From sequence record NC_049462.1: a stretch of 64,000 bases of DNA. One strand, written 5' to 3'. This DNA comes from Klebsiella phage Magnus. The translations under genes were made by a program, and so were the position numbers. Positions 1 through 62,771 of this stretch are shown piece after piece (within the stretch, counting starts at the first letter, position 1; every line of letters starts with the position of its first letter). The notes beneath the pieces were generated by a model. The model was not told the origin of the DNA. It ran no database searches and saw only the letters and a list, made by a program, of their open reading frames with translations.

Positions 1-818
1 TGCTAAGAAATTTGCTGTCCGTTTCTGGAGCAATTTTCTGTATCGCCTCCCCTGATTTAAATACCCCCATCAATTGGGGGTATTTTCTTATGAACGCACA
101 AATTTATGACGCCCTTGAACAAGGCAATGCATTTAACAATCCTCTCCCGGGATTCTCTGCTACTTCTCAGACGTTAATCACCAGTGGCCAACAAAGTATA
201 GCAGGCATTACAAGCATCCCGGATACGTCCGTTCAGGCGGCGATAACCGCTGGTGGTTTGACTCCTGCTAAACTGAATACCATGAACACCATGTACGGGA
301 CTGCCAATACTGGGATCGGGACTCTGAATTCTTATGGTGACCAGACCGTTAATGAGGCATACAATAGGATCGGAACTTCAGTATCCTATAAATCCGGCCT
401 CAAAAGTATTGAACGAGAACCCACCAACTGCGATTTGATTAACAACGCATTCGGTGTCGTACAGACACTCGGTCGTCAATGGTTGACTGCAATGGAGGAT
501 GCCTTATCTCCAATAACAGACAAAGTCCAAGAACTGTATGATCTCGCCAAACAAGGCGCGGCGGCGGGGTTGGCCAAAATACAGGCATTAGCCTCGCAGG
601 TCAACGGATTAATCAATGATGCTGTAGCAAAGGTGAATGGTGTTATTCAGAACATCACTGATGGGATAGCTGCTGAGTTAGCCCATATCGAAGACATGGT
701 GAAGAAGTGTCTTAATTTCTCCTTTGCTAATGTTCTTGGTGAATGGGCAAAAGATCTTTGCGCTGGCGGTGTCATCAACAATATCGGTTCTAATGATCTG
801 AAAAATGCCCTGAAATGA
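1..818 (+). CDS. 3' part of an ORF that runs open to the window edge (first in-frame alternative start TTG at 12). Hypothetical protein, possibly virion/fiber-associated.
   Basis: Open frame from the window start. Ser/Thr/Gly/Asn-rich N-part and Ala/Leu-rich helical C-part (AKQGAAAGLAKIQALASQVNGLINDAVAKVNG). No recognisable catalytic motif. Confidence 0.3.
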   Translation, partial: LRNLLSVSGAIFCIASPDLNTPINWGYFLMNAQIYDALEQGNAFNNPLPGFSATSQTLITSGQQSIAGITSIPDTSVQAAITAGGLTPAKLNTMNTMYGTANTGIGTLNSYGDQTVNEAYNRIGTSVSYKSGLKSIEREPTNCDLINNAFGVVQTLGRQWLTAMEDALSPITDKVQELYDLAKQGAAAGLAKIQALASQVNGLINDAVAKVNGVIQNITDGIAAELAHIEDMVKKCLNFSFANVLGEWAKDLCAGGVINNIGSNDLKNALK

Positions 819-6158: not shown

Positions 6159-6192
6159 TCTTCAATATCTATCTGTTGCTTTAATATCGTTG

Positions 6193-6217
6193 CAGGGGCG
6201 GAAAGCCCCTGTATTTT
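6193..6217 (+). terminator. Rho-independent terminator after gene 45.
   Basis: caggggc-ggaaa-gcccctg followed by a T-run. Confidence 0.6.
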
Positions 6218-8177: not shown

Positions 8178-9062
8178 ATGACAACTACATTTAGTAAGAA
8201 CGTGAGACTGAATCTGGCTTTTGGTAATGCTAAAGGGGACGTAACCGCCCCCGACTTTAGCAAAATTCGCAATCAGGCGAAACTCGTGTTGGAAGAAACC
8301 AAAGAACTCCTGGAAGCGGCGTATTTTGACCATGACGTTGTTGTCAATTTCCAGGCCACTCCAAAACCGAGTAACAACGAAATATATTCTGACCCCAATG
8401 CCAAAGTGAATGCTATGCGCCTCATTATGGATTCCCAGGGCGATATCACAACGGTCAACGACGGCGTGGCTCACATCGCCGGTTTCGACGGCAACGAATG
8501 CTTGCAGCGTGTCTACACGTCCAATATGAGCAAATTCATCCGTTCTGAAGATGAAGTCGGTCCGGCGCTGGATTATTACTATTCTCGCGGTTTCCCGGAA
8601 GGCCAGCTGCGTGTTGAAGGTGAATTCCCTCAGGCATGCATCAAGGTCAATGAGACCGTGATGTGGAACGGCAAAGAATATCCGGCGAATAAATTCCTGA
8701 AGAACATGGCCGTCTTCCAGGAACCGGATTTCAGTGATATGCTGACGAGTACTCCATTACAACAGGTGAAAGCCATCATCGCCAGCAGCGTTGTTGAACC
8801 GGGTAAAGCGTACATCGATAAAGAGAATGGTGTCGCTTACTTCCACATCAACGACCTCCGCCAGTTCCTGGAAACTTCTGCGGGGTTTGGTACGACTCAA
8901 GAACTGGCTAATGTAGATGGCCAGACTGAGAGTTATGTCCCGGTCTACCATGTTAGTGATGATTCGTATCCGGAACTGAACGGTTATTGGGCTGCTAACG
9001 TTCGTGTGTTCGTCTACTCCCCATACAATCCGGAAGTCACGCAGCTGACCCGTATCGATTAA
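8178..9062 (+). CDS. Hypothetical protein.
   Basis: 294 aa with a good SD. The N-part KLVLEETKELLEA weakly recalls the EExxE motif of all-alpha NTP pyrophosphohydrolases (MazG / T4 gp56-like). This is not established. Confidence 0.45.
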   Translation: MTTTFSKNVRLNLAFGNAKGDVTAPDFSKIRNQAKLVLEETKELLEAAYFDHDVVVNFQATPKPSNNEIYSDPNAKVNAMRLIMDSQGDITTVNDGVAHIAGFDGNECLQRVYTSNMSKFIRSEDEVGPALDYYYSRGFPEGQLRVEGEFPQACIKVNETVMWNGKEYPANKFLKNMAVFQEPDFSDMLTSTPLQQVKAIIASSVVEPGKAYIDKENGVAYFHINDLRQFLETSAGFGTTQELANVDGQTESYVPVYHVSDDSYPELNGYWAANVRVFVYSPYNPEVTQLTRID

Positions 9063-9085
9063 GTCATTCCACGTTTCAATATACA

Positions 9086-9108
9086 ACAGAGGCTATAATG
9101 GCCTCTGT
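9086..9108 (+). terminator. Hairpin with loop TATAATG followed by a T-run (terminator with an embedded -10-like hexamer).
   Basis: acagaggc-TATAATG-gcctctgt tttcg. TTCAAT lies 13 nt upstream of TATAAT. The hairpin ends 26 nt before the ATG at 9134. Confidence 0.6.
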
Positions 9109-9133
9109 TTTCGTATTCTAAGAAGAGGATACC

Positions 9134-10363
9134 ATGAAAGATAAACCGTCAGACATCCAATATTGCGGTGTCCGTGAAGATAAAATCAAAACAGCTGATC
9201 CTGTCCTCAGCCCTTTCCATCGCAAGCTGTCCTATGATTGGATGAATGAACGTTACAAAATCCACGTAAGAAAGGACGTCCAGAGTCTTCCTGCTCCCTG
9301 GACGGAAAATGAGATACTACGGCAGGTCAAGTTTTGTAACGTCCGGAGAGAGCACGACAGGCAGTCTCAGCACCTCATCCGGAATATCGTTGATAATAAG
9401 AACCTGACTCTGGCGGACAAGATGTTCAACTGCCTTCTGTTCCGTATGTTCAATATGTGGGATCCCATCCAGCATGTTCTAGAAGGTCCGGTCTCCATCA
9501 ATGATTTCCGTAATATCAATTTGGACCGAACTCGTGAACGATTTGCGGACTTTGACAAAAAAGGCGGCGTGACGTTCACTAATGCTTTCAACACAGGCGG
9601 CTTGAAGCAATGCCTGGCTTTTCCTGAACTGGCCGTGACTGGTAAGCCAGCCAGCCCCAGCAAAATGATGGTGAAAGTATTTGAGAAAGAAGGGCCGATG
9701 AAGTTTTATGTCGGGGAAATGAAATACAAAGATGCCAAGACTCTGGCCGAAGCAAATCCGGAAACAGTTGTGATCGAAGGCTGGGAACCGCATATGGGAA
9801 TGCGTGTTGTCCGATTCCTGAAAGCGTTTGTTACCCATAATCCTCATTTCTTCCATGCGTTGTTGGGGTTCAATTCACCACTATCTGTTTATGAAGAACT
9901 GCTTAACAAAGTTGAAGGCCTCGGTCCATTCTTGGCATATCAGATTTGGGTTGACTTCACATACAATCCGGATTATCCGTTCAGTGAAAACCATTTCACT
10001 ATCGCCGGGCCGGGGTGCCGCGCCGGGATTGATCTGTTGTTCCTGGACAAAGATGGTATGACCCACGAAGAGTGTATCTTCTGGCTCCGTGATAACCAGG
10101 ATCAGGTCTACGGGCAATATGGTTATGTTCGTGAACAATTCTGGTCGGCTGAAGCACCGGAAGATCAATGCATGAACGTCATGCAGCTGGAAAATATGTT
10201 CTGTGAACTGAGCAAATATACCCGTTGTGTCGAGGCTGTCATGCGTGGTGAGAAGCCTCGTGGTAAGGTTGGATATGACGGAAGCGGCGATTATAAAAAG
10301 CGTTGCGACGAAGTTGTTCTCAACCGTGGTTCTGTCAATCTTCTGGAAAGGATGAAGAAATGA
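9134..10363 (+). CDS. Hypothetical protein (409 aa).
   Basis: Strong SD AGAGGA. No motif I can assign; conserved-looking block GPFLAYQIWVDFTYNPDYPF. Confidence 0.5.
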   Translation: MKDKPSDIQYCGVREDKIKTADPVLSPFHRKLSYDWMNERYKIHVRKDVQSLPAPWTENEILRQVKFCNVRREHDRQSQHLIRNIVDNKNLTLADKMFNCLLFRMFNMWDPIQHVLEGPVSINDFRNINLDRTRERFADFDKKGGVTFTNAFNTGGLKQCLAFPELAVTGKPASPSKMMVKVFEKEGPMKFYVGEMKYKDAKTLAEANPETVVIEGWEPHMGMRVVRFLKAFVTHNPHFFHALLGFNSPLSVYEELLNKVEGLGPFLAYQIWVDFTYNPDYPFSENHFTIAGPGCRAGIDLLFLDKDGMTHEECIFWLRDNQDQVYGQYGYVREQFWSAEAPEDQCMNVMQLENMFCELSKYTRCVEAVMRGEKPRGKVGYDGSGDYKKRCDEVVLNRGSVNLLERMKK

Positions 10364-10700
10364 GTTGGAAATTATTCAAGTTACGCAAAGCCACAGATGA
10401 ATTTCTACTGGAAGCTCGTATGCAAGGTCGTCTTGTGTACACGCCTTATCCAGGAACCACGCGCTTTTGCAATACGTTAAGAAAACAGAATTCTGTTTCT
10501 GGCCCTAGAAGATTGATGAACCAGGGAATGTTGGCATACAACTCTGGGGATACCCGGCCTTGTGACGGTGGGAAGATAATCTGAACCAATATGATACTGG
10601 AATAAAGTTTTCAATAACTGTAATCGGGGTATATTGACCTCACTTTAACGAAGCGCCTCAACCGGGGCGCACATTTGAACTGAAACAGGAAGACTATATC

Positions 10701-12766: not shown

Positions 12767-13138
12767 ATGTTTGATAAAGCAACCCGTCTGAAACTGCGTT
12801 TCAACTCCAACAAAGGCATGCTGTCCGTTGAGCAGGTGTGGGATCTGAGCCTGACTGCTCTGAACGAAATGGCGAAAGGTCTGAACCGCGAACTGAAAGC
12901 TGCTGCGGTTGACGATGAAGATTTCATCGGTAACAATACCGCTGTTGATTCTCAGCTGCAACTGCGCTTTGACATCGTCAAAAGCATCATCAGCACCAAG
13001 CTGAAAGAGCGCGACGACACCCTGTCCGCTGCAGAAAAACGTGAGCACAACCAGGCCATCCTGGAACTCATCAAGAAGAAACAGCAGGAAGAGCTGGCGG
13101 GCAAATCTGTTGAAGAACTGCAAGCCCTGCTGAAATAA
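12767..13138 (+). CDS. Hypothetical protein (123 aa). Its last ~11 codons are duplicated downstream of nadV.
   Basis: SD AGAGGA. C-terminus ...SVEELQALLK. Confidence 0.5.
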   Translation: MFDKATRLKLRFNSNKGMLSVEQVWDLSLTALNEMAKGLNRELKAAAVDDEDFIGNNTAVDSQLQLRFDIVKSIISTKLKERDDTLSAAEKREHNQAILELIKKKQQEELAGKSVEELQALLK

Positions 13139-13182
13139 ATCCGTCAACTCCGGTATTAACAACCCCGCCCTGTGCGGGGTTT
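13102..13182 (+). repeat. Direct repeat copy 1: 33-nt core plus terminator hairpin.
   Basis: caaatCtgttgaagaactgcaagccctgctgaa (13102-13134), then 26 nt, then aaccccgccCtgtgcggggttt (13161-13182). Confidence 0.8.
13161..13182 (+). terminator. Rho-independent terminator.
   Basis: aaccccgcc-ctgt-gcggggtt followed by T-rich sequence. Confidence 0.7.
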
Positions 13183-13236
13183 CAATTTGTGTATCGCAGT
13201 ATAATACATATGTAAACTAAACTATGGGGCTACGTT

Positions 13237-14091: not shown

Positions 14092-15740
14092 GCATGCGCC
14101 ACTTAGATCCAATCCATGCAATCGACTTCTACAAATCAGGGCACATCTATCAATTTCCTGAAGGTAGCGAGCTGGTGTTCTCCAACGGAACTCCACGCTC
14201 CAACAAACTGTTCAACTCCCACCTGCCGAAGAACGGCGTGGTGGTCTGGGGTATCCAGGGCTTCATGACCTGGTTCCACGAACTGTTTGATGAAGCGTTC
14301 TTCCAGCGCCCAAAGGCCAAGGTGCTGAAGAAGTATGCCCGTCGAATGAACAAAGTTCTCGGACCAGGCCGCGTTGGGACAGAGCATATCGAAGCCCTGC
14401 ACGACCTCGGCTACCTGCCTATCGAAGTCCGCGCTCTACCCGAAGGCACCATGTGCCCGTATGGTGTTCCAGTATATGTGATGTTCAACACCTTGCCGGA
14501 GTTCTACTGGCTGACCAACTATCTGGAGACGGTGTTCAGCTCTGAGATCTGGAAGCCGATGACGAACGCAACCATTGCCCTGCATTACAAGGCGCTGATG
14601 GTGAAAGCCGCTATCGCTACAGGCGTGTCGCCGGACCATTGGTTCATCGACTACCAAGGCCACGACTTCTCCTTCCGTGGTATGAGCGGGTGGCATGACG
14701 CGGCGTCTTCCGGTTCTGGCCATCTGGTGTTCTTCAAAGGCACCGACACCAACCCTGCCCTGGACTTCGTTGAAGAGTATTATGGCGCGGATATCGATGA
14801 AGACTATGTCGTTGCTGGCTCTGTTGCAGCCACCGAACACGCCGTGATGTGCATGGGCACGAAAGATGGCGAATTCGAAACCTTCCGCCGCCTGGTACAG
14901 GACGTGTATCCTGATGGCATCGTCAGTATCGTTTCTGATGCATGGGATTACTGGCAGGTCATCGACGACTATCTGCCGCGCCTCAAAGATATCATCATGG
15001 CGCGTAATGGCAAAGTTGTGATCCGCCCCGACTCTGGTGACCCAGTGCATATCGTCGGTGGTTATCGCGTCGAAGAATTTTGCAATGAGCAGGATTTTTA
15101 CGATAACGACCCACGTGAAGAAACTGAAGTTATCTATCTCAAAGAAGAAAACAGATACCATATTCTGGAACAATATCAGTTTAATCAGATCGGGGAAGAG
15201 ATTTCTCGTTCAGAAGCGGTCGGTTCTATCCAGCGCCTATGGGAGATCTTTGGCGGAACCCAGACCGAAACGGGCCACTTCCTGTTGGATGAGCATATCG
15301 GCCTGATCTACGGTGATTCCATTACCCTGAGCCGTGAAGATCAGATCTTTGCTCGTCTGGCTGAACGTAATTTCGCTTCCATCAACGTAGTGTTCGGTAT
15401 CGGTTCCTATACTTACCAGATGAACACCCGTGATAGTACCGGGACGGCGGTGAAAGCAACGGCTGGGAAGGTCAACGGTGAATTCCGTGAGATTTTCAAA
15501 GAACCGAAGACTGACAAAGGTGGTACGAAGAAATCTGCGCGTGGTTTCCTTAAAGTCATTAAAGACTCTCAGGGTAAACTAGTGTTGGTTGACGGTATCA
15601 CCTTTGATCAGGTGCAAGACGCCGACAACCAGCACCAGCTGGTGTATCGTGATGGCAAGTTCTTCAACACCCAAACTCTGGAAGAAGCGCGTTTTCGTGC
15701 CGCTCCTCTGGTGGAAGAATTGGCATCACAAATATGTTGA
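14088..15740 (+). CDS. nadV: Nicotinamide phosphoribosyltransferase family protein (NadV/NAMPT-like; alternatively a Namat).
   Basis: NAMPT-family features: N-terminus DFYKSGH, GTEHIEALHDLGYLP, RPDSGDP, YGDSIT. Start overlaps the prs stop (ATGA). 550 aa. Confidence 0.75.
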   Translation: MSMRHLDPIHAIDFYKSGHIYQFPEGSELVFSNGTPRSNKLFNSHLPKNGVVVWGIQGFMTWFHELFDEAFFQRPKAKVLKKYARRMNKVLGPGRVGTEHIEALHDLGYLPIEVRALPEGTMCPYGVPVYVMFNTLPEFYWLTNYLETVFSSEIWKPMTNATIALHYKALMVKAAIATGVSPDHWFIDYQGHDFSFRGMSGWHDAASSGSGHLVFFKGTDTNPALDFVEEYYGADIDEDYVVAGSVAATEHAVMCMGTKDGEFETFRRLVQDVYPDGIVSIVSDAWDYWQVIDDYLPRLKDIIMARNGKVVIRPDSGDPVHIVGGYRVEEFCNEQDFYDNDPREETEVIYLKEENRYHILEQYQFNQIGEEISRSEAVGSIQRLWEIFGGTQTETGHFLLDEHIGLIYGDSITLSREDQIFARLAERNFASINVVFGIGSYTYQMNTRDSTGTAVKATAGKVNGEFREIFKEPKTDKGGTKKSARGFLKVIKDSQGKLVLVDGITFDQVQDADNQHQLVYRDGKFFNTQTLEEARFRAAPLVEELASQIC

Positions 15741-15810
15741 AGAACTGCAAGCCCTGCTGAATAGCCAGCTGCCTTCGGCGCGATAATGAACCCCGCCATG
15801 TGCGGGGTTT
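15729..15810 (+). repeat. Direct repeat copy 2: 33-nt core (1 mismatch) plus terminator hairpin (1 mismatch).
   Basis: caaatAtgttgaagaactgcaagccctgctgaa (15729-15761), then 27 nt, then aaccccgccAtgtgcggggttt (15789-15810). Confidence 0.8.
15789..15810 (+). terminator. Rho-independent terminator after nadV.
   Basis: Hairpin aaccccgccatgtgcggggttt + attttag. Confidence 0.7.
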
Positions 15811-16957: not shown

Positions 16958-17021
16958 CAAAACCGGGTTCAATATACGTTCGGGCATATAATATCCTAGT
17001 GTTAAACAGTGGAGAAGATTT

Positions 17022-20181: not shown

Positions 20182-20397
20182 ATGGCTATATCACAAATTG
20201 TCGACCTCACCCCGTTTTGCCTCAACAATATTTCAAATCCTAAATTAGTCTTGTACAAGGACCCAACTAATTTTTGTTGGTTAGCAAGCTGCGACACCCA
20301 CAACGGAAGGCGTGCTGTTTGGGATTTCCCCGCGACCGATGAGGGGCGCATACTTGCTATACGCAAATTGGAATCAGAAAATTCTAAACGCGGGTGA
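20182..20397 (+). CDS. Hypothetical small protein.
   Basis: ORF, SD GAAGGTG. Confidence 0.35.
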   Translation: MAISQIVDLTPFCLNNISNPKLVLYKDPTNFCWLASCDTHNGRRAVWDFPATDEGRILAIRKLESENSKRG

Positions 20398-20639: not shown

Positions 20640-20651
20640 AATCAATAACAC

Positions 20652-20674
20652 GGGCGGGGTATGATTGCCCCGTC
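20652..20674 (+). terminator. Hairpin terminator with a TATGAT-containing loop.
   Basis: cgggcgggg-tatgattg-ccccgtc followed by tatttg. Confidence 0.5.
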
Positions 20675-20698
20675 TATTTGAAACGCAGGATTCATATC

Positions 20699-23289: not shown

Positions 23290-24030
23290 ATGACCGACAA
23301 CGAAATTGCCCAGATCATTAAGCAGCATTCCCGTTTTGCTCCGGATGCTGCTAATGTCATCATAGTGCACAAAGACGGACGTGTATTCTTTGCTGAAAAA
23401 TTTGAGCAAGGGAGCCAGTTCTGGGATGCGAGCACGATGCTTCCACGTACCCTACAAGGTATCATCTACTCCTGTTCTCTGGTAGCGAAGCGGAGCGATG
23501 CTGGTCATTGGGTTAGTGTTAATGATCTCGGTGGCATTATGGGTGGAAAAGAATATCCGACCAAACGCTCCCCGCCGCCTTATGTCAAAGAACAGATGTC
23601 CAAGATTACCAATCGTCCAAGACCGACCCCGAAAGCACCGAAATTCGAAGTCGTTCCTGCAACGGCGGTAGAAACAAAACCAGCCAAAAAGGATACTGAT
23701 TGGCGTTCTGGATTTATCGGGGTTAAAGAATTGGATCGCGAACGTAATCCTCGCAATCATCCATTGTTCGTGTCAATACGGACTGATGGTAAAATCATCC
23801 TGAGCAAAGGTCTTCTGGATAAAATCGATGGTAATTTTGATTTTCTGGTGTCTAAGGATCGGAAGGTCATTGCCCTGGTGAAAAACGGTTCTATGTATAA
23901 TATGAACAAATCGGGGAATTACTCTCACAAAGGTCTGCCCAAGTATCTCAAGTTCCCAGAAGATTCCGGTACAGTTCGAATCTATATGGACTGGGACCAA
24001 GAAAAGAACGCATTTATCGGCAGTCTATAA
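23290..24030 (+). CDS. Hypothetical protein.
   Basis: ORF with SD. Confidence 0.4.
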   Translation: MTDNEIAQIIKQHSRFAPDAANVIIVHKDGRVFFAEKFEQGSQFWDASTMLPRTLQGIIYSCSLVAKRSDAGHWVSVNDLGGIMGGKEYPTKRSPPPYVKEQMSKITNRPRPTPKAPKFEVVPATAVETKPAKKDTDWRSGFIGVKELDRERNPRNHPLFVSIRTDGKIILSKGLLDKIDGNFDFLVSKDRKVIALVKNGSMYNMNKSGNYSHKGLPKYLKFPEDSGTVRIYMDWDQEKNAFIGSL

Positions 24031-24034
24031 TATC

Positions 24035-24057
24035 GGGGCGGTTATAATGACCGCCTC
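24035..24057 (+). terminator. Hairpin with loop TATAATG.
   Basis: ggggcggt-TATAATG-accgcctc ttt. It ends 22 nt before the ATG at 24079. Confidence 0.6.
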
Positions 24058-24078
24058 TTTGATTTGAAGGAATATATT

Positions 24079-35435: not shown

Positions 35436-35455
35436 AAAGGGGCTTCGGCCCCTTT
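35436..35455 (+). terminator. Rho-independent terminator.
   Basis: aaaggggc-ttcg-gcccctttt. Confidence 0.7.
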
Positions 35456-35531: not shown

Positions 35532-35867
35532 ATGACACAACTCAAGAACTTCACCTCCGATGACATGTTTGCCTTCCAGGGCGCGGAGCACTTTGCTGAC
35601 GGATCCGTACCTCGCATCTACTACTTCTCCGACGAAGAGATGGAAGCGTTCTTCGATCTGATGGAAAAAGACTACGAATCTGGCGACTTCGTTTATATCA
35701 TCCACCATGCTGAAGGCTTGTCCCTGGGCTGGACGGCCAACAGCGAGCCGGAAGAAGTGAACTTCCCAGAAGGCATCATGTCAGAGCGCATAGAATATCT
35801 GCTGGAAGCCCTGGATTCACACACCCTTCCGCTCTGGGCGATGTCTGTAGCCAAAGTTCAAAAATAA
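35532..35867 (+). CDS. Hypothetical acidic protein.
   Basis: ORF with SD AAGGA. Confidence 0.4.
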   Translation: MTQLKNFTSDDMFAFQGAEHFADGSVPRIYYFSDEEMEAFFDLMEKDYESGDFVYIIHHAEGLSLGWTANSEPEEVNFPEGIMSERIEYLLEALDSHTLPLWAMSVAKVQK

Positions 35868-35870
35868 GAT

Positions 35871-35890
35871 AAGGGGCTATAATGCCCCTT
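35871..35890 (+). terminator. Hairpin with loop TATAAT.
   Basis: aaggggc-TATAAT-gcccctt tcctttcg. Confidence 0.6.
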
Positions 35891-35941
35891 TCCTTTCGCT
35901 AATTAATGGAAACCGTCCGTTTTATTATCAGGAGAACCACC

Positions 35942-38719
35942 ATGTCTATACCGAACTTCTTAGATTTCATGAAAGAGCGCGACCAGTTGGACGAAGCGTT
36001 CAACTCAGCTCCTTATGAACTCACCATGGGCAAGAAAAATGCCGGGGACGTTTTCTTCACCTTCATCGATGAAGATGATAAAGAATACCGTATCCAATTC
36101 TATACCCCGCAAGGTCTGGGTAAAAACGTCCGCCAGGTCTTCATCGGACAGAAACGTGGTTCAGTTTATCCTGATGCCATCGCCCGTTTCAAGAACCCGA
36201 TGCGCGTTATCGCCAGCATGATCGAAGCCACCAAACAATTCATGGCGACGCCTCTGGGTAAGACTATCGATGGCTATGCCGTCAACTTCTCTAAGAAAGC
36301 GCTGGATCGTGGTATGACCCTGATCCCGAAAATCATTCGTCAATCCGGCCTCAAACAGAAACTGAACGTCATGGATCTGACCTACGCGCCTGTCCCTGAC
36401 CGTGGTTACGTTTGGCTGGTCAAAAAAGGAAAAGACCCGGCTCAGGTATTCGACGGTCCGAAGATGCAGGGTATCACCTGGGATGATCCAGACAAGGTCG
36501 GTGACGTCCCGGTTCAGAACAATATTCCGGATGTGGGGGCTTCATCTTCTGTTGATGATTCCAACGGATGGAAATTAACTTCAAACGGGGATCAGCCCAT
36601 GTTGATATGGGTTGGTAAGGAGAGAGGCCGCATGAACACGGCAAATATCGCTCCCCACTACAATGAGCCAGGCGTGTATGTTGGCGCATACATGAATGAG
36701 AAATCTGTGCGTGGGCAAAGTGCTGATTTCATCGCTCGTCAGTTGAAATTACCGCAAGTCCCTATCAGTATCCTGAATGATTTCACCACGGCGTCCACAA
36801 AATTTTGGAAAGGTTCTCAGCAGAAGTCCGCGCCAGCTGACTCCAACACCACTATTGGTGCTCGGGGTGTGGGAACCGGGGCTGGTTCTTCTGAAATCGA
36901 AGTCAACCGCGAGTGGTACAACAGCTCGGACACTGGTCTGGAGTTGAAGAGCGGGCGAGACCCGATTCGTGGAAACTACGTCCGCCTGATGAGCGGTTCG
37001 AAAGAAGTAGCCGCATTCTATGGTTATAATTTTGACAAATATCCAGACGGGGCTGAGGTATCTTGGAATATGAAGCGCGGCTTCACCAACCAAGACTTGG
37101 TCGGTGCGTCCATGACCAAACAGAAGAAAGGCATGTACGATCAGTACACTTTCAAGAAAGGTGCTCAGATAATTCTGGTGGTGGACGTTGACACCAGCAA
37201 TGACACCGGCAATGACACCAGCGATGAACTTACCAAATCCAAGTGGCTCAATTTACTGAATTACATTGGCTACAGTAAGGCAGCTGGCGGCAAATTGTTT
37301 GGTGATGATGAATACATCAAGAACTTCGTGAAAGACCGTTACAAACTGACTCTGTCAATTGCGCGACGTAATCAATCAGTCCAGATGTCTGTTAATGCCT
37401 GGAACGCAACAGCAGAAAAATGGGTAGCATTCCCGCCATCTGTGGGTGTGTTAGAAAATGTTGACATCAGCGATCCAAAACGATTCCCCAAGATTATTGA
37501 TGATTTTGTTCAAACAGCAACGGACTACGTTGAAAAGAACTTGGAGAACGTCGTCGTTGGTTGGTATAACAAAACGGCACCTGCTGGACAACCAGTATTG
37601 GAGTTCCGTGAGAAATCAGGTATGTATGGTGGTGGTATCAATGTGTTACCAAGTTCTGGCACCCCAGTATATGGTGTGTATTACGGTGCTTCCTCAAAAT
37701 TAAGATCCTTTGCAGAAGTGTCCGGCTCAGACTTGGGTGTCCTGGCCAAAACCTTGAAACTCCCACCGATTCCGTCTGGTGTGGCTAAAGAGTTTACGAA
37801 GGCGGCGACTGCCTGGTGGAAACAGAAAAATATCACCCCACCGAACACTGATTCTGGGGAACAATCCGTTTTGGATAATTTGAAGATACCACGTAACGCC
37901 ACGGTGTTTGGTGAGACTGTCAACGGTATGTCCATCACTTGGTCCGGCATCAATTTCCCGGAAACTGGGAAATATGGTGGTGCTGTATTGACAACTAATG
38001 TGACCTGCTACTATGATAAAGACAAAGTCGCATTCACGCCGATGATCTCCCAGAAAGGGCGGCTACTGAACAATCCGAAGACATATGAACTTCCTTTGAA
38101 GAAAACTATTGTTCAAGCCGTGATCGATGAAATTTCTTCGAAAATGGAAATTTTATCTCGGAATATGCAAACTCTGAAAAGCACGTCCTATAATCCGAAA
38201 CAAGTATTTTTGGACGACATTGTTGTCGACAACAACGGTTCAGTCCTTTGGCGCGGGCACGACATGGCTGATCGCCGCACTACTGAATTCATGTTGGGTA
38301 TCTTGAATGACGAAAATAGTCGTCTGGAGAAGGAGGGCGGCAAAGGGAAGACAGCTGCAGACCTGGCAACATATGCGGCGTCGATTGAAGAAAGTGCTCC
38401 AAAGGGGCGTGACCTTGATTGGCGGGTATACTTAACCAACAATGGCAATTCCCTGCAGGTTGATTGGGAAATTACTTTCCGCCGCAACACACACGTCGGC
38501 GCCATGAAGGAATTCAGCGCTCAGGTCTACCGTGGCAACCGTTATCTGGAAGACGTATATGCCGATGCTAAGAGCAGAGGCTATGCGCCGGAACAACCGA
38601 ACCTGATGGCGATGTCCGATGCTCAACGTAGCGATGACATGGCTATGATGAATGGCGAAGACGCATATTCCGAATACGAGCAGTCAATCGGCGGTAGTTT
38701 GAAAATTAATCTGAAGTAA
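35942..38719 (+). CDS. Large Alt-like/internal-head-protein-like protein with an internal ~70-aa duplication (ATG at 35942; an upstream ATG lies at 35906).
   Basis: The N-region PMRVIASMIEATKQFMATPLGKTIDGYAVNFSKKALDRGMTLIPKIIRQ resembles the T4 Alt N-region. Internal repeat: ARQLKLPQVPISILNDFTTASTKFWK vs AKTLKLPPIPSGVAKEFTKAATAWWK. Confidence 0.4.
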   Translation: MSIPNFLDFMKERDQLDEAFNSAPYELTMGKKNAGDVFFTFIDEDDKEYRIQFYTPQGLGKNVRQVFIGQKRGSVYPDAIARFKNPMRVIASMIEATKQFMATPLGKTIDGYAVNFSKKALDRGMTLIPKIIRQSGLKQKLNVMDLTYAPVPDRGYVWLVKKGKDPAQVFDGPKMQGITWDDPDKVGDVPVQNNIPDVGASSSVDDSNGWKLTSNGDQPMLIWVGKERGRMNTANIAPHYNEPGVYVGAYMNEKSVRGQSADFIARQLKLPQVPISILNDFTTASTKFWKGSQQKSAPADSNTTIGARGVGTGAGSSEIEVNREWYNSSDTGLELKSGRDPIRGNYVRLMSGSKEVAAFYGYNFDKYPDGAEVSWNMKRGFTNQDLVGASMTKQKKGMYDQYTFKKGAQIILVVDVDTSNDTGNDTSDELTKSKWLNLLNYIGYSKAAGGKLFGDDEYIKNFVKDRYKLTLSIARRNQSVQMSVNAWNATAEKWVAFPPSVGVLENVDISDPKRFPKIIDDFVQTATDYVEKNLENVVVGWYNKTAPAGQPVLEFREKSGMYGGGINVLPSSGTPVYGVYYGASSKLRSFAEVSGSDLGVLAKTLKLPPIPSGVAKEFTKAATAWWKQKNITPPNTDSGEQSVLDNLKIPRNATVFGETVNGMSITWSGINFPETGKYGGAVLTTNVTCYYDKDKVAFTPMISQKGRLLNNPKTYELPLKKTIVQAVIDEISSKMEILSRNMQTLKSTSYNPKQVFLDDIVVDNNGSVLWRGHDMADRRTTEFMLGILNDENSRLEKEGGKGKTAADLATYAASIEESAPKGRDLDWRVYLTNNGNSLQVDWEITFRRNTHVGAMKEFSAQVYRGNRYLEDVYADAKSRGYAPEQPNLMAMSDAQRSDDMAMMNGEDAYSEYEQSIGGSLKINLK

Positions 38720-43382: not shown

Positions 43383-43451
43383 CGGAATTTCCTCGAGTGT
43401 AATTCACTTTCACTTTAAATACCTCTGCAAACATTGCGGAGGTATTTTCTT

Positions 43452-44246
43452 ATGGCCATTTTAAAGATTGGCAGCAAAGGTCTGGAAGTTAAGAATCTTC
43501 AGACCAGTCTCAACAAAATCGGGTTCAATCTGGTTGCCGATGGCATATTTGGTAAAGCGACTGACAACGCCGTCAGGGCAGTTCAGGCGGGTGCCGGACT
43601 CGTCGTTGATGGTATTGCTGGCCCCAAGACCATGTATGCTATACGCAACGCAGGGGAGTCTCATCAGGATCATCTGACTGAGGCTGACTTGATTGACGCT
43701 GCTCGTGAATTGTCTGTTGACCTTGCTAGCATCAAGGCAGTCAACCAAGTAGAATCGCGCGGTACTGGCTTCACCAAGTCTGGAAAGATTAAGACATTGT
43801 TTGAACGCCACATCATGTACAAAAAGCTGAATGCCAAGTTCGGTCAGGCAAAAGCCAATGCTCTGGCCCAGCTTTACCCGACGTTGGTTAACGCCAAAGC
43901 CGGGGGATACACAGGTGGAGACGCGGAGTTGGAACGACTCCATGGTGCAATAGCGATCGATAAAGATTGCGCCTACGAGAGCGCTTCCTACGGGTTATTC
44001 CAGATCATGGGGTTCAACTGTGTTATCTGCGGGTACGCAAATGCTGAGCAGATGTTCAACGACTTTCTCACTGGTGAACGTGCTCAGCTCATGGCATTTG
44101 TCAAGTTCATCAAGGCTGACGCCAATCTGTGGAAAGCATTGAAGGACAAGAATTGGGCTGAGTTTGCTCGGCGTTACAATGGCCCGGCGTATGCACAGAA
44201 CCAGTACGACACCAAGCTGGCTGCAGCATACAAATCATTCAGTTAG
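43452..44246 (+). CDS. Modular endolysin: N-terminal peptidoglycan-binding domain plus C-terminal N-acetylmuramidase (DUF3380-type), like Gp110 of Salmonella phage 10.
   Basis: PG_binding_1-like LQTSLNKIGFNLVADGIFGKATDNAVRAVQ...GIAGPKT. C-terminal GLFQIMGFN and the remaining muramidase region. Confidence 0.75.
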   Translation: MAILKIGSKGLEVKNLQTSLNKIGFNLVADGIFGKATDNAVRAVQAGAGLVVDGIAGPKTMYAIRNAGESHQDHLTEADLIDAARELSVDLASIKAVNQVESRGTGFTKSGKIKTLFERHIMYKKLNAKFGQAKANALAQLYPTLVNAKAGGYTGGDAELERLHGAIAIDKDCAYESASYGLFQIMGFNCVICGYANAEQMFNDFLTGERAQLMAFVKFIKADANLWKALKDKNWAEFARRYNGPAYAQNQYDTKLAAAYKSFS

Positions 44247-45214: not shown

Positions 45215-45247
45215 CGCCGCCTTCAATCTATGAGGGCGGCGTATAAT
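45215..45247 (+). promoter_or_regulatory. Hairpin immediately followed by TATAAT, upstream of nrdA.
   Basis: cgccgcc(TTCAATctatgag)ggcggcg then TATAAT at 45242-45247. TTCAAT lies 14 nt upstream of TATAAT. ATG at 45282. Confidence 0.45.
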
Positions 45248-54872: not shown

Positions 54873-54910
54873 ATCGGTCTAAATACCCATAACACCAATG
54901 AAACTATGTT

Positions 54911-55522
54911 ATGGGTATTTTTATGAAATATTGCGGAATTGACTACTCTTATGGTTGCCCAGCGATTTGTGTCTGGGACGACAAAGATCCTTTGGAATTT
55001 AATTCCCTTCGCTTCTATGCATATTACACGGTAGAAAAATATTGTCGCCCTATTCGGCCGAACATCAGCATTATGAAGCAACCTGCATATTCCTCCCCTG
55101 AAGAAAGATTCTATAACATTTCCAAATGGGCAGAAGCTGTTCTTCTTACAGAGAAACCTGATTTCATAACCCTCGAGGGTTATGCGATGGGCAACTCTAA
55201 GAACTCCAATAATATATGCCAAACCGCTGAGAACACTTCTCTTTTGAAGCAAGCAATGCGCCGTAATAATATGGAATTCGAAATCATCACTCCTTCTTAT
55301 ACCAAAAAGAATTTCACAGGTAAGGGCACTGCTGACAAACTTGCTATGATAGCCCACTTCGAGAAGCTGTTCAACGTTAACATGCGCGGTATAATGGATA
55401 TGTTGGAAGTTAAAGATCCGAAGCCAATCGATGATCTTGTCGATGGGTTTGCCAATATGGTAGGCGGTTCTGCTTTCAAAGAGAATCATCCCGAATTTAA
55501 TTCTGAGGTGCACAATGGTTGA
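54911..55522 (+). CDS. RuvC-like Holliday junction resolvase (start possibly at the in-frame ATG 54923).
   Basis: KYCGIDYSYG (GID Asp), ITLEGYA (Glu), DDLVDGFANMV (C-terminal Asp pair), arranged as in phage RuvC-type resolvases. Confidence 0.5.
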   Translation: MGIFMKYCGIDYSYGCPAICVWDDKDPLEFNSLRFYAYYTVEKYCRPIRPNISIMKQPAYSSPEERFYNISKWAEAVLLTEKPDFITLEGYAMGNSKNSNNICQTAENTSLLKQAMRRNNMEFEIITPSYTKKNFTGKGTADKLAMIAHFEKLFNVNMRGIMDMLEVKDPKPIDDLVDGFANMVGGSAFKENHPEFNSEVHNG

Positions 55523-56527: not shown

Positions 56528-56540
56528 ATCAATCAAATAT

Positions 56541-56562
56541 GCGGGGGTATAATTACTCCCGC
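56541..56562 (+). promoter_or_regulatory. Hairpin with loop TATAATTA in the gene 32 leader region.
   Basis: gcggggg-TATAATTA-ctcccgc. About 60 nt upstream of the gp32 ATG. A second small GC hairpin lies at 56592-56606. Confidence 0.5.
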
Positions 56563-56623
56563 TGTGAAAGAAATATTGTGTACAGAATAGCCCCCTGGGG
56601 CGATACTATCGAGGAAAGAAAGA

Positions 56624-62034: not shown

Positions 62035-62062
62035 TTTTAAATCAGATTCCGTTCAATAGACG

Positions 62063-62089
62063 AAGGGGCTGCTATAATAGCAGCCTCTT
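62063..62089 (+). terminator. Hairpin with loop TATAATA.
   Basis: aaggggctgc-TATAATA-gcagcctctt ttg. TTCAAT lies 15 nt upstream of TATAAT. Ends 20 nt before the ATG at 62109. Confidence 0.6.
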
Positions 62090-62108
62090 TTGTTTATTGG
62101 GGCTTTGT

Positions 62109-62771
62109 ATGTCTTATACGATCAAAGGTCTGTTGAAAAGACCTGTCCATTTGTTCCATAAACCGCCTGCCGTTGTCGGGGAATACCCGGCAAGAGGAGA
62201 GCTTTATTATGTCAAAGGCTCCAACGGTAGTGGCAAGTCTACCGTTCCGTCCTGGATGGCGGAGAATGATCCTCAGGCATATGTCGTGACCCACAATGGT
62301 AAGGTGATGCTGACCGTTTGCCCATCATTTAATATCATCTGTGTTGGTAAGTACGACAAATCGAAATCCAAAGGGGTTGACTCTCTAAAAGACACAGAAC
62401 AGATGCTATTCGCTGTGTCTATCACCGAGCAACCTGAATACATCGGGTATGATGTGATCTTTGAAGGTATTATCCCTGCTACTTTGCTCAATACGTGGAT
62501 TGAACGTCTAAACCGCCCGACCCGCCGCCTTGTGGTTCTGTTCTTGGATACCCCCAAGGAAGTATGCCTGGCACGTGTGAGTTCTCGCAATGGTGGTGAA
62601 GACTTCAAACACGAACTCGTCCTGGAGAAATGGAAGCGTGTCAACTCTCACCGAGAGCGGCATAAAGAGTTGTTCCCTAACATTCCTGCGGGTATGATGA
62701 AGTCTAATGGTCTGACCGTTGATCAGGCCGTATCTGCGTTTCTCAATCGTGATTTTGGGAGTATTGATTGA
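62109..62771 (+). CDS. P-loop kinase, candidate 5-hydroxymethyluracil DNA kinase (5-HMUDK-like) or other polynucleotide/nucleotide kinase.
   Basis: Walker A YYVKGSNGSGKST. About 220 aa. Immediately upstream of, and coupled to, the TS-family gene. Confidence 0.45.
   Translation: MSYTIKGLLKRPVHLFHKPPAVVGEYPARGELYYVKGSNGSGKSTVPSWMAENDPQAYVVTHNGKVMLTVCPSFNIICVGKYDKSKSKGVDSLKDTEQMLFAVSITEQPEYIGYDVIFEGIIPATLLNTWIERLNRPTRRLVVLFLDTPKEVCLARVSSRNGGEDFKHELVLEKWKRVNSHRERHKELFPNIPAGMMKSNGLTVDQAVSAFLNRDFGSID

Follow-up and report, generated by a model that had tools for sequence, protein, structure and literature searches.

Five hairpins in the genome of Klebsiella phage Magnus carry in their loops the exact hexamer TATAAT, the sigma-70 -10 consensus, and all five stand a short distance upstream of a gene. 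Does such an element end transcription, begin it, or do both? We addressed this question in a stretch of 64,000 nucleotides of sequence record NC_049462.1 (hereafter the window), for which an earlier note had listed the five hairpins (at 9086, 24035, 35871, 56541 and 62063; elements 1 to 5 below), a degenerate copy at 20652 and a hairpin-then-TATAAT variant at 45215 before nrdA. Reading the sequence recovered all five, and both additional members are present. We confirm that the TATAAT-loop hairpins are real and strongly non-random; they are probably overlapping intrinsic terminators and promoters of the promoter-stem-loop (PeSL) type, built on a known Ackermannviridae promoter motif.

The window belongs to an Ackermannviridae phage (ViI-like, Taipeivirus-like) and not to T4 proper. 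Its identity is 87-89% to the Klebsiella phages Menlow and 0507-KN2-1 (Ackermannviridae, Taipeivirus) and about 72% to the Salmonella and E. coli ViI-like phages. From IMG/VR we took the corresponding regions in about 20 relatives and compared the 110 nt 5' of each gene. The structures, their excess over chance, their strand and position bias, their conservation, the separability of their parts in relatives and the pattern of G·U pairing are all shown here from the sequences. A scan of the whole window against Rfam at gathering thresholds matched 0 families.

TATAAT occurs 27 times on the + strand of the window. Considering stems of at least 6 bp, four of these copies lie in the loops of perfect stems and five do so if G·U pairs are allowed, against means of 0.05 and 0.37, respectively, in 300 dinucleotide-preserving shuffles. 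None of the 15 copies on the - strand lies within a loop under strict pairing, and other permutations of the same letters are seldom found in hairpin loops. The RNA folds have free energies of -12.5 to -19.8 kcal/mol and z-scores of -3.6 to -7.8 (-5.9 for element 1, -4.0 for element 2 and -7.8 for element 5). The plain terminator-like hairpins of the window have loops of 4-5 nt (GAAA, TTCG, AAAA, TAAT, CCTGT), and loops of 6-8 nt are therefore special to the hairpins that bear the hexamer.

All five hairpins lie on the coding strand and begin 3-27 nt past the stop codon of the preceding + strand gene, in intergenic gaps of 48-96 nt (Table 1). Element 1, for instance, begins 22 nt past the stop at 9062 and ends 24 nt before the ATG at 9134, and element 3 begins 3 nt past the stop at 35867; an extra TATAAT at 24026-24031, ahead of the hairpin of element 2, overlaps the preceding stop codon. 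From hairpin end to next start the distance is 19-61 nt across the five, using for element 3 the conserved start at 35942, which has an AGGAG ribosome-binding site. The lower end of the 16-62 nt range reported earlier falls because it relied on an ATG at 35906 that is not conserved among relatives. The genes behind elements 1 and 5 encode a 5-hydroxymethyldeoxyuridine (5-hmdU) DNA kinase helical-domain protein and a 5-hmdU DNA kinase.

Table 1. Coordinates and composition of the TATAAT-loop elements, their variants and the hairpin-free motif copy in the window.
Feature	Coordinates	Strand	Composition
Element 1, hairpin	9085-9109	+	arms AACAGAGGC / GCCTCTGTT; loop tataatg
Element 1, whole	9075-9112	+	TTCAAT 9075-9080; TATAAT 9094-9099 in loop; U-tract 3'
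Element 2, hairpin	24035-24057	+	arms GGGGCGGT / ACCGCCTC; loop tataatg; one G·T
Element 2, whole	24026-24066	+	TATAAT 24043-24048 in loop; U-rich tail; next ATG 24079
Element 3, hairpin	35871-35890	+	AAGGGGC-tataat-GCCCCTT; TATAAT 35878-35883 is the entire loop
Element 3, whole	35857-35898	+	TTCAAA 35857-35862; hairpin; moderate U-tract
Element 4, hairpin (gene 32 leader)	56541-56562	+	GCGGGGG-tataatta-CTCCCGC; one G·T
Element 4, whole	56528-56562	+	ATCAAT 56528-56533; TATAAT 56548-56553 in loop; gp32 ATG 56624
Element 5, hairpin	62062-62090	+	arms GAAGGGGCTGC / GCAGCCTCTTT; loop tataata; G·T pairs
Element 5, whole	62052-62100	+	TTCAAT 62052-62057; TATAAT 62073-62078 in loop; ATG 62109
Degenerate member	20641-20675	+	ATCAAT 20641-20646; hairpin ~20650-20675; TATGAT 20660-20665 in loop (TATGATT); ATG 20699
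Register variant before nrdA	45215-45247	+	hairpin 45215-45241; TATAAT 45242-45247 abutting 3' arm
Register variant	13161-13205	+	terminator hairpin 13161-13181; TTCAAT 13181-13186; TATAAT 13200-13205; ATG 13237
Motif without hairpin	16968-16992	+	TTCAAT-N13-TATAAT

On the terminator side, a U-rich tail comparable to those of the window's plain terminators follows four of the five hairpins. A U-tract is present at elements 1, 2 and 5 (strong in the last, TTTTGTTTATT), moderate at element 3 and missing at element 4, whose tail reads TGTGAAAG; the earlier claim that every hairpin is followed by a T-run therefore holds for four of them, one only moderately, and not for the gene 32 leader. A consensus scan of 8-25 kb placed the sites at 9085 and 24035 among its three best terminator-like sites, with element 2 as the best. 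The GenBank record of Menlow labels the ortholog of element 1 a terminator.

On the promoter side, exact TTCAAT-N13-15-TATAAT occurs five times in the window (TTCAAT at 9075, 13181, 16968, 45222 and 62052) against 0.07 expected, always on the + strand and always 5' of a gene. Four of these pairs had been pointed out before and proved exact; the copy at 16968 is added here. Two are TATAAT-loop hairpins (elements 1 and 5), and the remaining three have their -10 at 45242, 13200 and 16987. Boxes with one mismatch to TTCAAT precede the loops at 35878 and 56548, and the loop hexamer is the -10 of the TTCAAT motif in four of the five elements, the loop at 24043, without a TTCAAT box, being the one that does not match. 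TTCAAT[N14]TATAAT is reported, with CTAAATAcCcc, as one of two “unique regulatory motifs” of the group in a paper on another Ackermannviridae phage (PMC7283392), which quotes it as a Viunalikevirus/Ackermannviridae motif without naming its first description. Taxon and sequence are shared with the elements of the window and, judged by its sequence, the motif found here is the one already published. It was given there as a sequence pattern, and the literature examined does not mention spacer and -10 as arm and loop of a terminator.

The variants show the same parts in other registers. The terminator at 13161 has a T-tail that continues into the TTCAAT; before nrdA, the TTCAAT at 45222-45227 lies within the loop and stem of a hairpin of -21 kcal/mol that has no U-tract and is conserved among relatives; the degenerate member folds at -17.8 kcal/mol (z -3.6). 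The copy at 16968, an indel boundary in relative 2974650499, has no hairpin, and the promoter motif thus exists independently of the stem. The genome-wide check for TATAAT-loop hairpins that the earlier note proposed gave, besides the excess over shuffles in the window, four loop-embedded -10 boxes among the seven exact TTCAAT-N13-15-TATAAT sites of a close relative, cp19, whose genome is complete and has the feature in low copy number. One of the four belongs to the - strand and precedes a start on that strand (20137), which indicates that the feature follows gene orientation.

Comparison with relatives separates what is kept from what is exchanged. The 21-nt core of element 1, CAGAGGCTATAATGGCCTCTG, occurs once, and unchanged, in each of 17 Ackermannviridae genomes from four genera, among which the adjacent protein is only 67-97% identical. 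At the same site the distant contig L021 carries aagaggagc-TATAATa-ggctcctctt with TTCAAT 15 nt 5', a full replacement of the stem, unrelated to that of the window, with the layout retained. At element 5 the stem contains GGGGC/GCCTC in Klebsiella types versus GGAGC/GCTCC in Salmonella types, with G·U intermediates; across nine distinct orthologs 99/99 cells are paired, and all four variable pairs change via G·U or by compensation. Upstream of gp32, TCAAT-N14-TATAAT is conserved in all relatives, and a stem occurs in Klebsiella types but not in the Salmonella-type relatives L024-L031, a pattern in which the promoter is constant and the hairpin optional. At element 3, by the same kind of comparison, the hairpin is constant and the putative promoter optional: a hairpin occurs in all relatives, and its loop varies between TATAAT, TATAAC, TTCG and CTGAC. 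Around 13161, lineages have unrelated terminator stems that are always followed by TTCAAT...TATAAT. These comparisons imply that the two functions are separable and have been merged repeatedly. The proposal of a fused terminator-promoter unit fits the comparative evidence. At the site of element 2, Salmonella-type relatives have TTCAAT-N14-TATTAT, with TATTAT within the hairpin loop, and at three sites the loop hexamer is invariant across orthologs.

Two further loci illustrate this turnover. At the gp44 (clamp loader) site, the window (6161-6211) carries TTCAAT-N13-TTTAAT and, 3' of it where the transcript is predicted to start, a hairpin with a GGAAA loop, and contig L021 (932-953) has a TATAAT-loop hairpin, ggcggggTATAATagccccgc, which points to turnover between registers. 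In the Salmonella phage Marshall-like contig L011 (9338-9420), an HNH homing-endonuclease gene is inserted right after the ATGAAA of the ortholog of the gene at 9134 and takes over its leader, in which the hairpin loop reads TAAAAT and not TATAAT.

We propose that each element combines a hairpin that terminates the + strand transcript coming from upstream with a promoter for the downstream gene, around which the hairpin is built. The promoter spacer would form the 5' arm, the -10 hexamer the loop, and the discriminator and start region the 3' arm with its U-tract. RNA arriving from upstream would carry both arms, fold and, in four of the five, be released at the U-tract. Polymerase at the embedded promoter would start some 5-8 nt past the hexamer, inside the 3' arm, and its RNA, lacking the 5' arm, would therefore escape termination. 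Such an element would insulate adjacent transcription units and pack terminator, promoter and leader into the short gaps given above. Termination, initiation, the position of the start site and the polymerase factors that would read the TTCAAT box are what we infer from these patterns. A secondary property, with partial support, is that hairpins in this genome frequently sit at the borders of inserted or replaced genes, as PeSLs do.

A terminator-promoter design of this kind is already known from T4-like phages, and no new kind of mechanism is revealed here. PeSL elements have been described in the T4-like phages RB49/phi1, PST/T4 and nt-1/KVP40 (Arbiol et al. 2010, PMC2839356; Comeau et al. 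2014, PMC4122927); those of RB49/phi1 lie between genes and combine a strong sigma-70-like promoter with a stem-loop that acts as terminator (PMC2839356). A stem-loop overlapping the -10 box is one of the two commonest arrangements in that paper, in which the -10-overlapping PeSLs of RB49/phi1 were tested as promoter and terminator, and the phi1 sequence shows ggcgggTAATAATcccgcc and gggtgtatatCATAATacaccc as stem-loops that overlap the -10. The elements of the window share with PeSLs the intergenic position between stop codon and Shine-Dalgarno/ATG, the promoter with a perfect or near-perfect -10 and the G/C-rich terminator stem-loop, the existence of other registers (stem around the -35, upstream of the -35 or downstream of the -10), and the placement of some elements at indel junctions. 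They differ in phage family (Ackermannviridae versus Straboviridae) and in having TTCAAT at 13-15 nt where PeSLs have TTGACA at 17 nt. PeSLs are near-identical repeats of 70-100 bp with orphan open reading frames (ORFs) behind them, whereas the elements here are single-copy orthologous sites with unrelated stems, mostly before core genes (gp32 and two genes of the 5-hmdU DNA kinase family). PeSLs were characterised by promoter, terminator and mini-circle assays, and the present elements are known from sequence alone. The likeness to PeSLs suggested in the earlier note therefore extends to the design of a stem-loop overlapping the -10, and not to the TTGACA -35 or the repeated cassette.

Several observations weigh against our interpretation. 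Manual reading found no TTGACA-like -35 at 16-18 nt in any of the five, and a consensus sigma-70 scan of 8-25 kb, which returned 34 weak sites against 22.3 +/- 4.9 expected, called a promoter at neither 9094 nor 24043; a TTGACA-type -35 is therefore no basis for the promoter call. A TTCAAT at 13-15 nt lies outside normal sigma-70 geometry, so that the sites may not be used by host polymerase on its own, and element 2 is without even that box. A GC-rich discriminator, here the 3' arm, generally weakens open-complex formation, and the thymidines of ViI-like phages are hypermodified, which may affect -10 recognition. Termination is doubtful at element 4, which has no U-tract, and at element 3, where the U-tract is only moderate. 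The covariation at element 5 is too sparse, with 286 of 500 shuffles scoring as well, and the structural case consequently rests on the independent stems of different sites, on the replacement of stems within a site and on the asymmetry between G·T and A·C pairs described below. A search of the accessible literature library for an Ackermannviridae transcriptome or mapped promoters returned nothing usable.

The departure from normal geometry brings T4 middle promoters to mind, and the earlier note had compared the spacing with theirs. Both have a box whose centre lies near -30, about 13-15 nt separate it from an excellent -10, a -35 at the canonical distance is missing, and the genes that follow serve replication and nucleotide metabolism. 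The geometry is thus similar; the box, TTCAAT, is not the MotA box, (a/t)(a/t)(a/t)TGCTTtA, and ViI-like phages are reported to lack homologs of MotA, AsiA, Alt and ModA (PMC3184105). It is conceivable, as a tentative extension to which we give a low probability, that TTCAAT(-30)/TATAAT is a factor-dependent “middle” class of promoter in Ackermannviridae and each 45-nt element a temporal switch. The reader of TTCAAT would then be a phage protein, a functional analogue of MotA/AsiA without sequence similarity to them. Before its appearance the element would only terminate, leaving silent gp32 and the 5-hmdU DNA kinase genes, that is, genes of replication and DNA hypermodification; once the factor is made, the same element would fire. 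Polymerase freed at the U-tract, lying on the promoter's own start region, might in addition re-initiate on the spot. The interest of the elements would rise if the TTCAAT box proves to need a phage factor.

A second parallel comes from T4 genes e, soc, 49 and I-TevI, in which a late promoter lies inside a hairpin that hides the ribosome-binding site. The logic is shared: a promoter inside the hairpin gives RNA without the 5' arm that escapes the effect of the hairpin, and read-through RNA is affected, as we propose for the TATAAT-loop elements. The consequence differs, in that the T4 hairpins occlude the Shine-Dalgarno sequence, whereas the TATAAT-loop elements would act by termination and the start, with a ribosome-binding site of its own, follows 19-61 nt on. 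Separately, three other loci of the window (58-93; 43416-43455, the endolysin ortholog; 54880-54925) have a late-type motif, (c/t)TAAATACC, as the 5' arm of a hairpin of 11-14 bp and -17 to -18 kcal/mol, of which the 3' arms (GGGGGTATTT, GGAGGTATTT and GGGTATTT) hold a Shine-Dalgarno sequence, with the ATG only a few nt further on. By analogy this looks like the T4 lysozyme/soc scheme, in which read-through RNA hides its ribosome-binding site and the late transcript has its start within the hairpin; in the Menlow record the endolysin hairpin is labelled “terminator” and overlaps the ribosome-binding site.

Could the hairpins be plain intrinsic terminators, with A/U-rich loops that only resemble a -10 and initiate nothing? 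All five do follow stop codons, four of them with U-tracts; a canonical -35 is missing; relatives carry a TTCG loop at element 3; and GC-rich flanking arms are unfavourable for promoter melting. We nevertheless consider this unlikely, as it does not account for the recurrence of exact TATAAT five times when other permutations of its letters are rare in loops, for loops of 6-8 nt against 4-5 nt in other terminators, for the constant spacing of TTCAAT in four elements, or for a loop that does not vary across genera at three sites and that persists at gp32 in relatives without the stem.

A main role in gene shuffling, with the elements as mobile or recombination-prone cassettes (true PeSLs) that recombine between copies, seems to us quite unlikely. 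Homology with four relatives does break exactly at 35871/35872; a nearby hairpin at 35436-35455 has the same AAGGGGC/GCCCCTT stem as element 3; a 2.6-kb cassette lies between the copies of an 80-bp repeat with a terminator in it; and 6 of 56 indel-boundary clusters lie no more than 4 nt from the edge of a GC hairpin, against 0.68 for random positions, a comparison that used random positions although indels are intergenic anyway. Against this, no stem sequence is common to the five and there is no repeat family, the core of element 1 occurs once per genome (17 genomes), and elements 1, 4 and 5 lie in conserved core without an adjacent indel among the five closest relatives. Element 2 lies in a segment missing from some relatives. 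Of the recombination-prone cassettes suggested earlier, then, the breakpoint at element 3 stands, three elements show no adjacent rearrangement and no repeat family joins the five. Descent of all five from a single mobile cassette we reject, given their unrelated stems and the single-copy core of element 1.

Other edges of exchange were noted in the same comparisons. The direct repeat of 80 bp (13102-13182 and 15729-15810; first 33 nt 97% and terminator part 95% identical) consists of a gene 3' end and the terminator AACCCCGC-cNtgt-GCGGGGTT, and the cassette between its copies, which holds genes for a ribose-phosphate pyrophosphokinase and a nicotinate/nicotinamide phosphoribosyltransferase, has no BLAST match in 3 of the 5 closest relatives. 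At 20184, 20702, 35535 and 40427, homology stops precisely where small ORFs have their start codons: the leaders (…ctatattATG, …catatcATG, …ctacattATG) are conserved and the ORF behind them is replaced, an ORF-precise cassette exchange in a variable region of about 19.7-26 kb and elsewhere. The complex intergenic segment 35421-35532 contains a TTCAAT and a TTCG-loop hairpin, AAAGGGGC/GCCCCTTT, whose stem is that of the TATAAT-loop hairpin 416 nt downstream, as well as a second TTCAAT just 9 nt from a TATAAT; these features bracket a 111-aa ORF that is lacking or replaced in other relatives.

The remaining alternatives place the function of the inverted repeats in DNA rather than RNA, and the non-Watson-Crick pairs are informative here. 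Among 23 distinct hairpin sequences there are 11 internal G·T and 0 A·C pairs, representing about six independent events; G·T is present in three of the five stems of the window, and the RNA fold of the + strand is more stable than that of the - strand in 5/5 (difference 0.1-6 kcal/mol). G·T pairs without A·C pairs, together with stronger + strand folds, argue for an RNA hairpin in + transcripts and against a cruciform or a duplex operator, and this pattern points to hairpins that act as RNA. Binding of a dimeric phage or host protein to the palindromes as DNA operators, to repress or activate at the -10, is accordingly disfavoured by an asymmetry that would be meaningless for recognition of duplex DNA. 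A palindrome centred on the -10 box is a classical operator position, and the stem of element 1 is invariant across genera in which the adjacent protein is 67-97% identical, but the stems are wholly different between sites, with no common half-site, within a site they covary or are replaced outright, and operators would leave the U-tracts and the placement after stop codons unexplained; we regard this reading as very unlikely. Extrusion of the hairpin as a DNA cruciform or single strand that offers an unpaired -10 to polymerase, as the earlier note had asked and as in phage N4 early promoters, is extremely improbable despite sigma-70 reading the -10 as single-stranded non-template DNA and the hexamer lying exactly in the loop, since N4-type promoters form hairpins on both strands and here each G·T becomes an A·C mismatch on the - strand, which folds more weakly, since stems of 6-11 bp with loops of 6-8 nt extrude poorly by general cruciform energetics, and since the promoter motif at 16968 has no hairpin and the gp32 stem is dispensable in relatives. 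The UAUAAU loop was also considered as a target of RNA processing or of RegA/RegB, to which nothing in the present data points, no dedicated test having been made.

Overlapping terminators and promoters, the interpretation that we favour, would give a concrete and testable picture of how pre-late transcription is organised in ViI-like phages, which are widely used for biocontrol of Salmonella, E. coli, Klebsiella and Dickeya. The 2011 genome paper of the ViI-like phage CBA120 found early and middle promoters not identifiable (PMC3184105). The group's conserved TTCAAT-N14-TATAAT motif often shares its DNA with the terminator before it, and annotators should therefore not label such sites “terminator” only, as in the Menlow record. 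The PeSL design principle would at the same time be extended from Straboviridae to a second family, which would fit either convergence under pressure for compact, insulated transcription units or a shared trait of old origin.

Minor observations concern the genes and leaders near these sites. Of the TATAAT-loop elements, the two best conserved are each followed by a gene of the thymidine-hypermodification pathway (9134-10363, Pfam HMUDK_hel, E 4e-80; 62109-62771, HMUDK_HMUD1, E 8e-106), and the putative promoters of these DNA modification genes are themselves T-rich boxes in DNA with modified thymidines. In the gp32 leader, a small second hairpin, GCCCC-CT-GGGGC (56590-56601), is found in all relatives with changing loop and stem (gcccgaaggggc, gccctgaggggc) and may be part of a gp32 autoregulatory operator. 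The leader of a 676-aa gene (ATG 10701) has, at about 10653-10700, a hairpin GCGCC…GGGGCGC of which the stem differs between Klebsiella-type and Salmonella-type phages with complementarity kept, followed by the strongly conserved TTTGAACTGAAACAGGAAGACTA.

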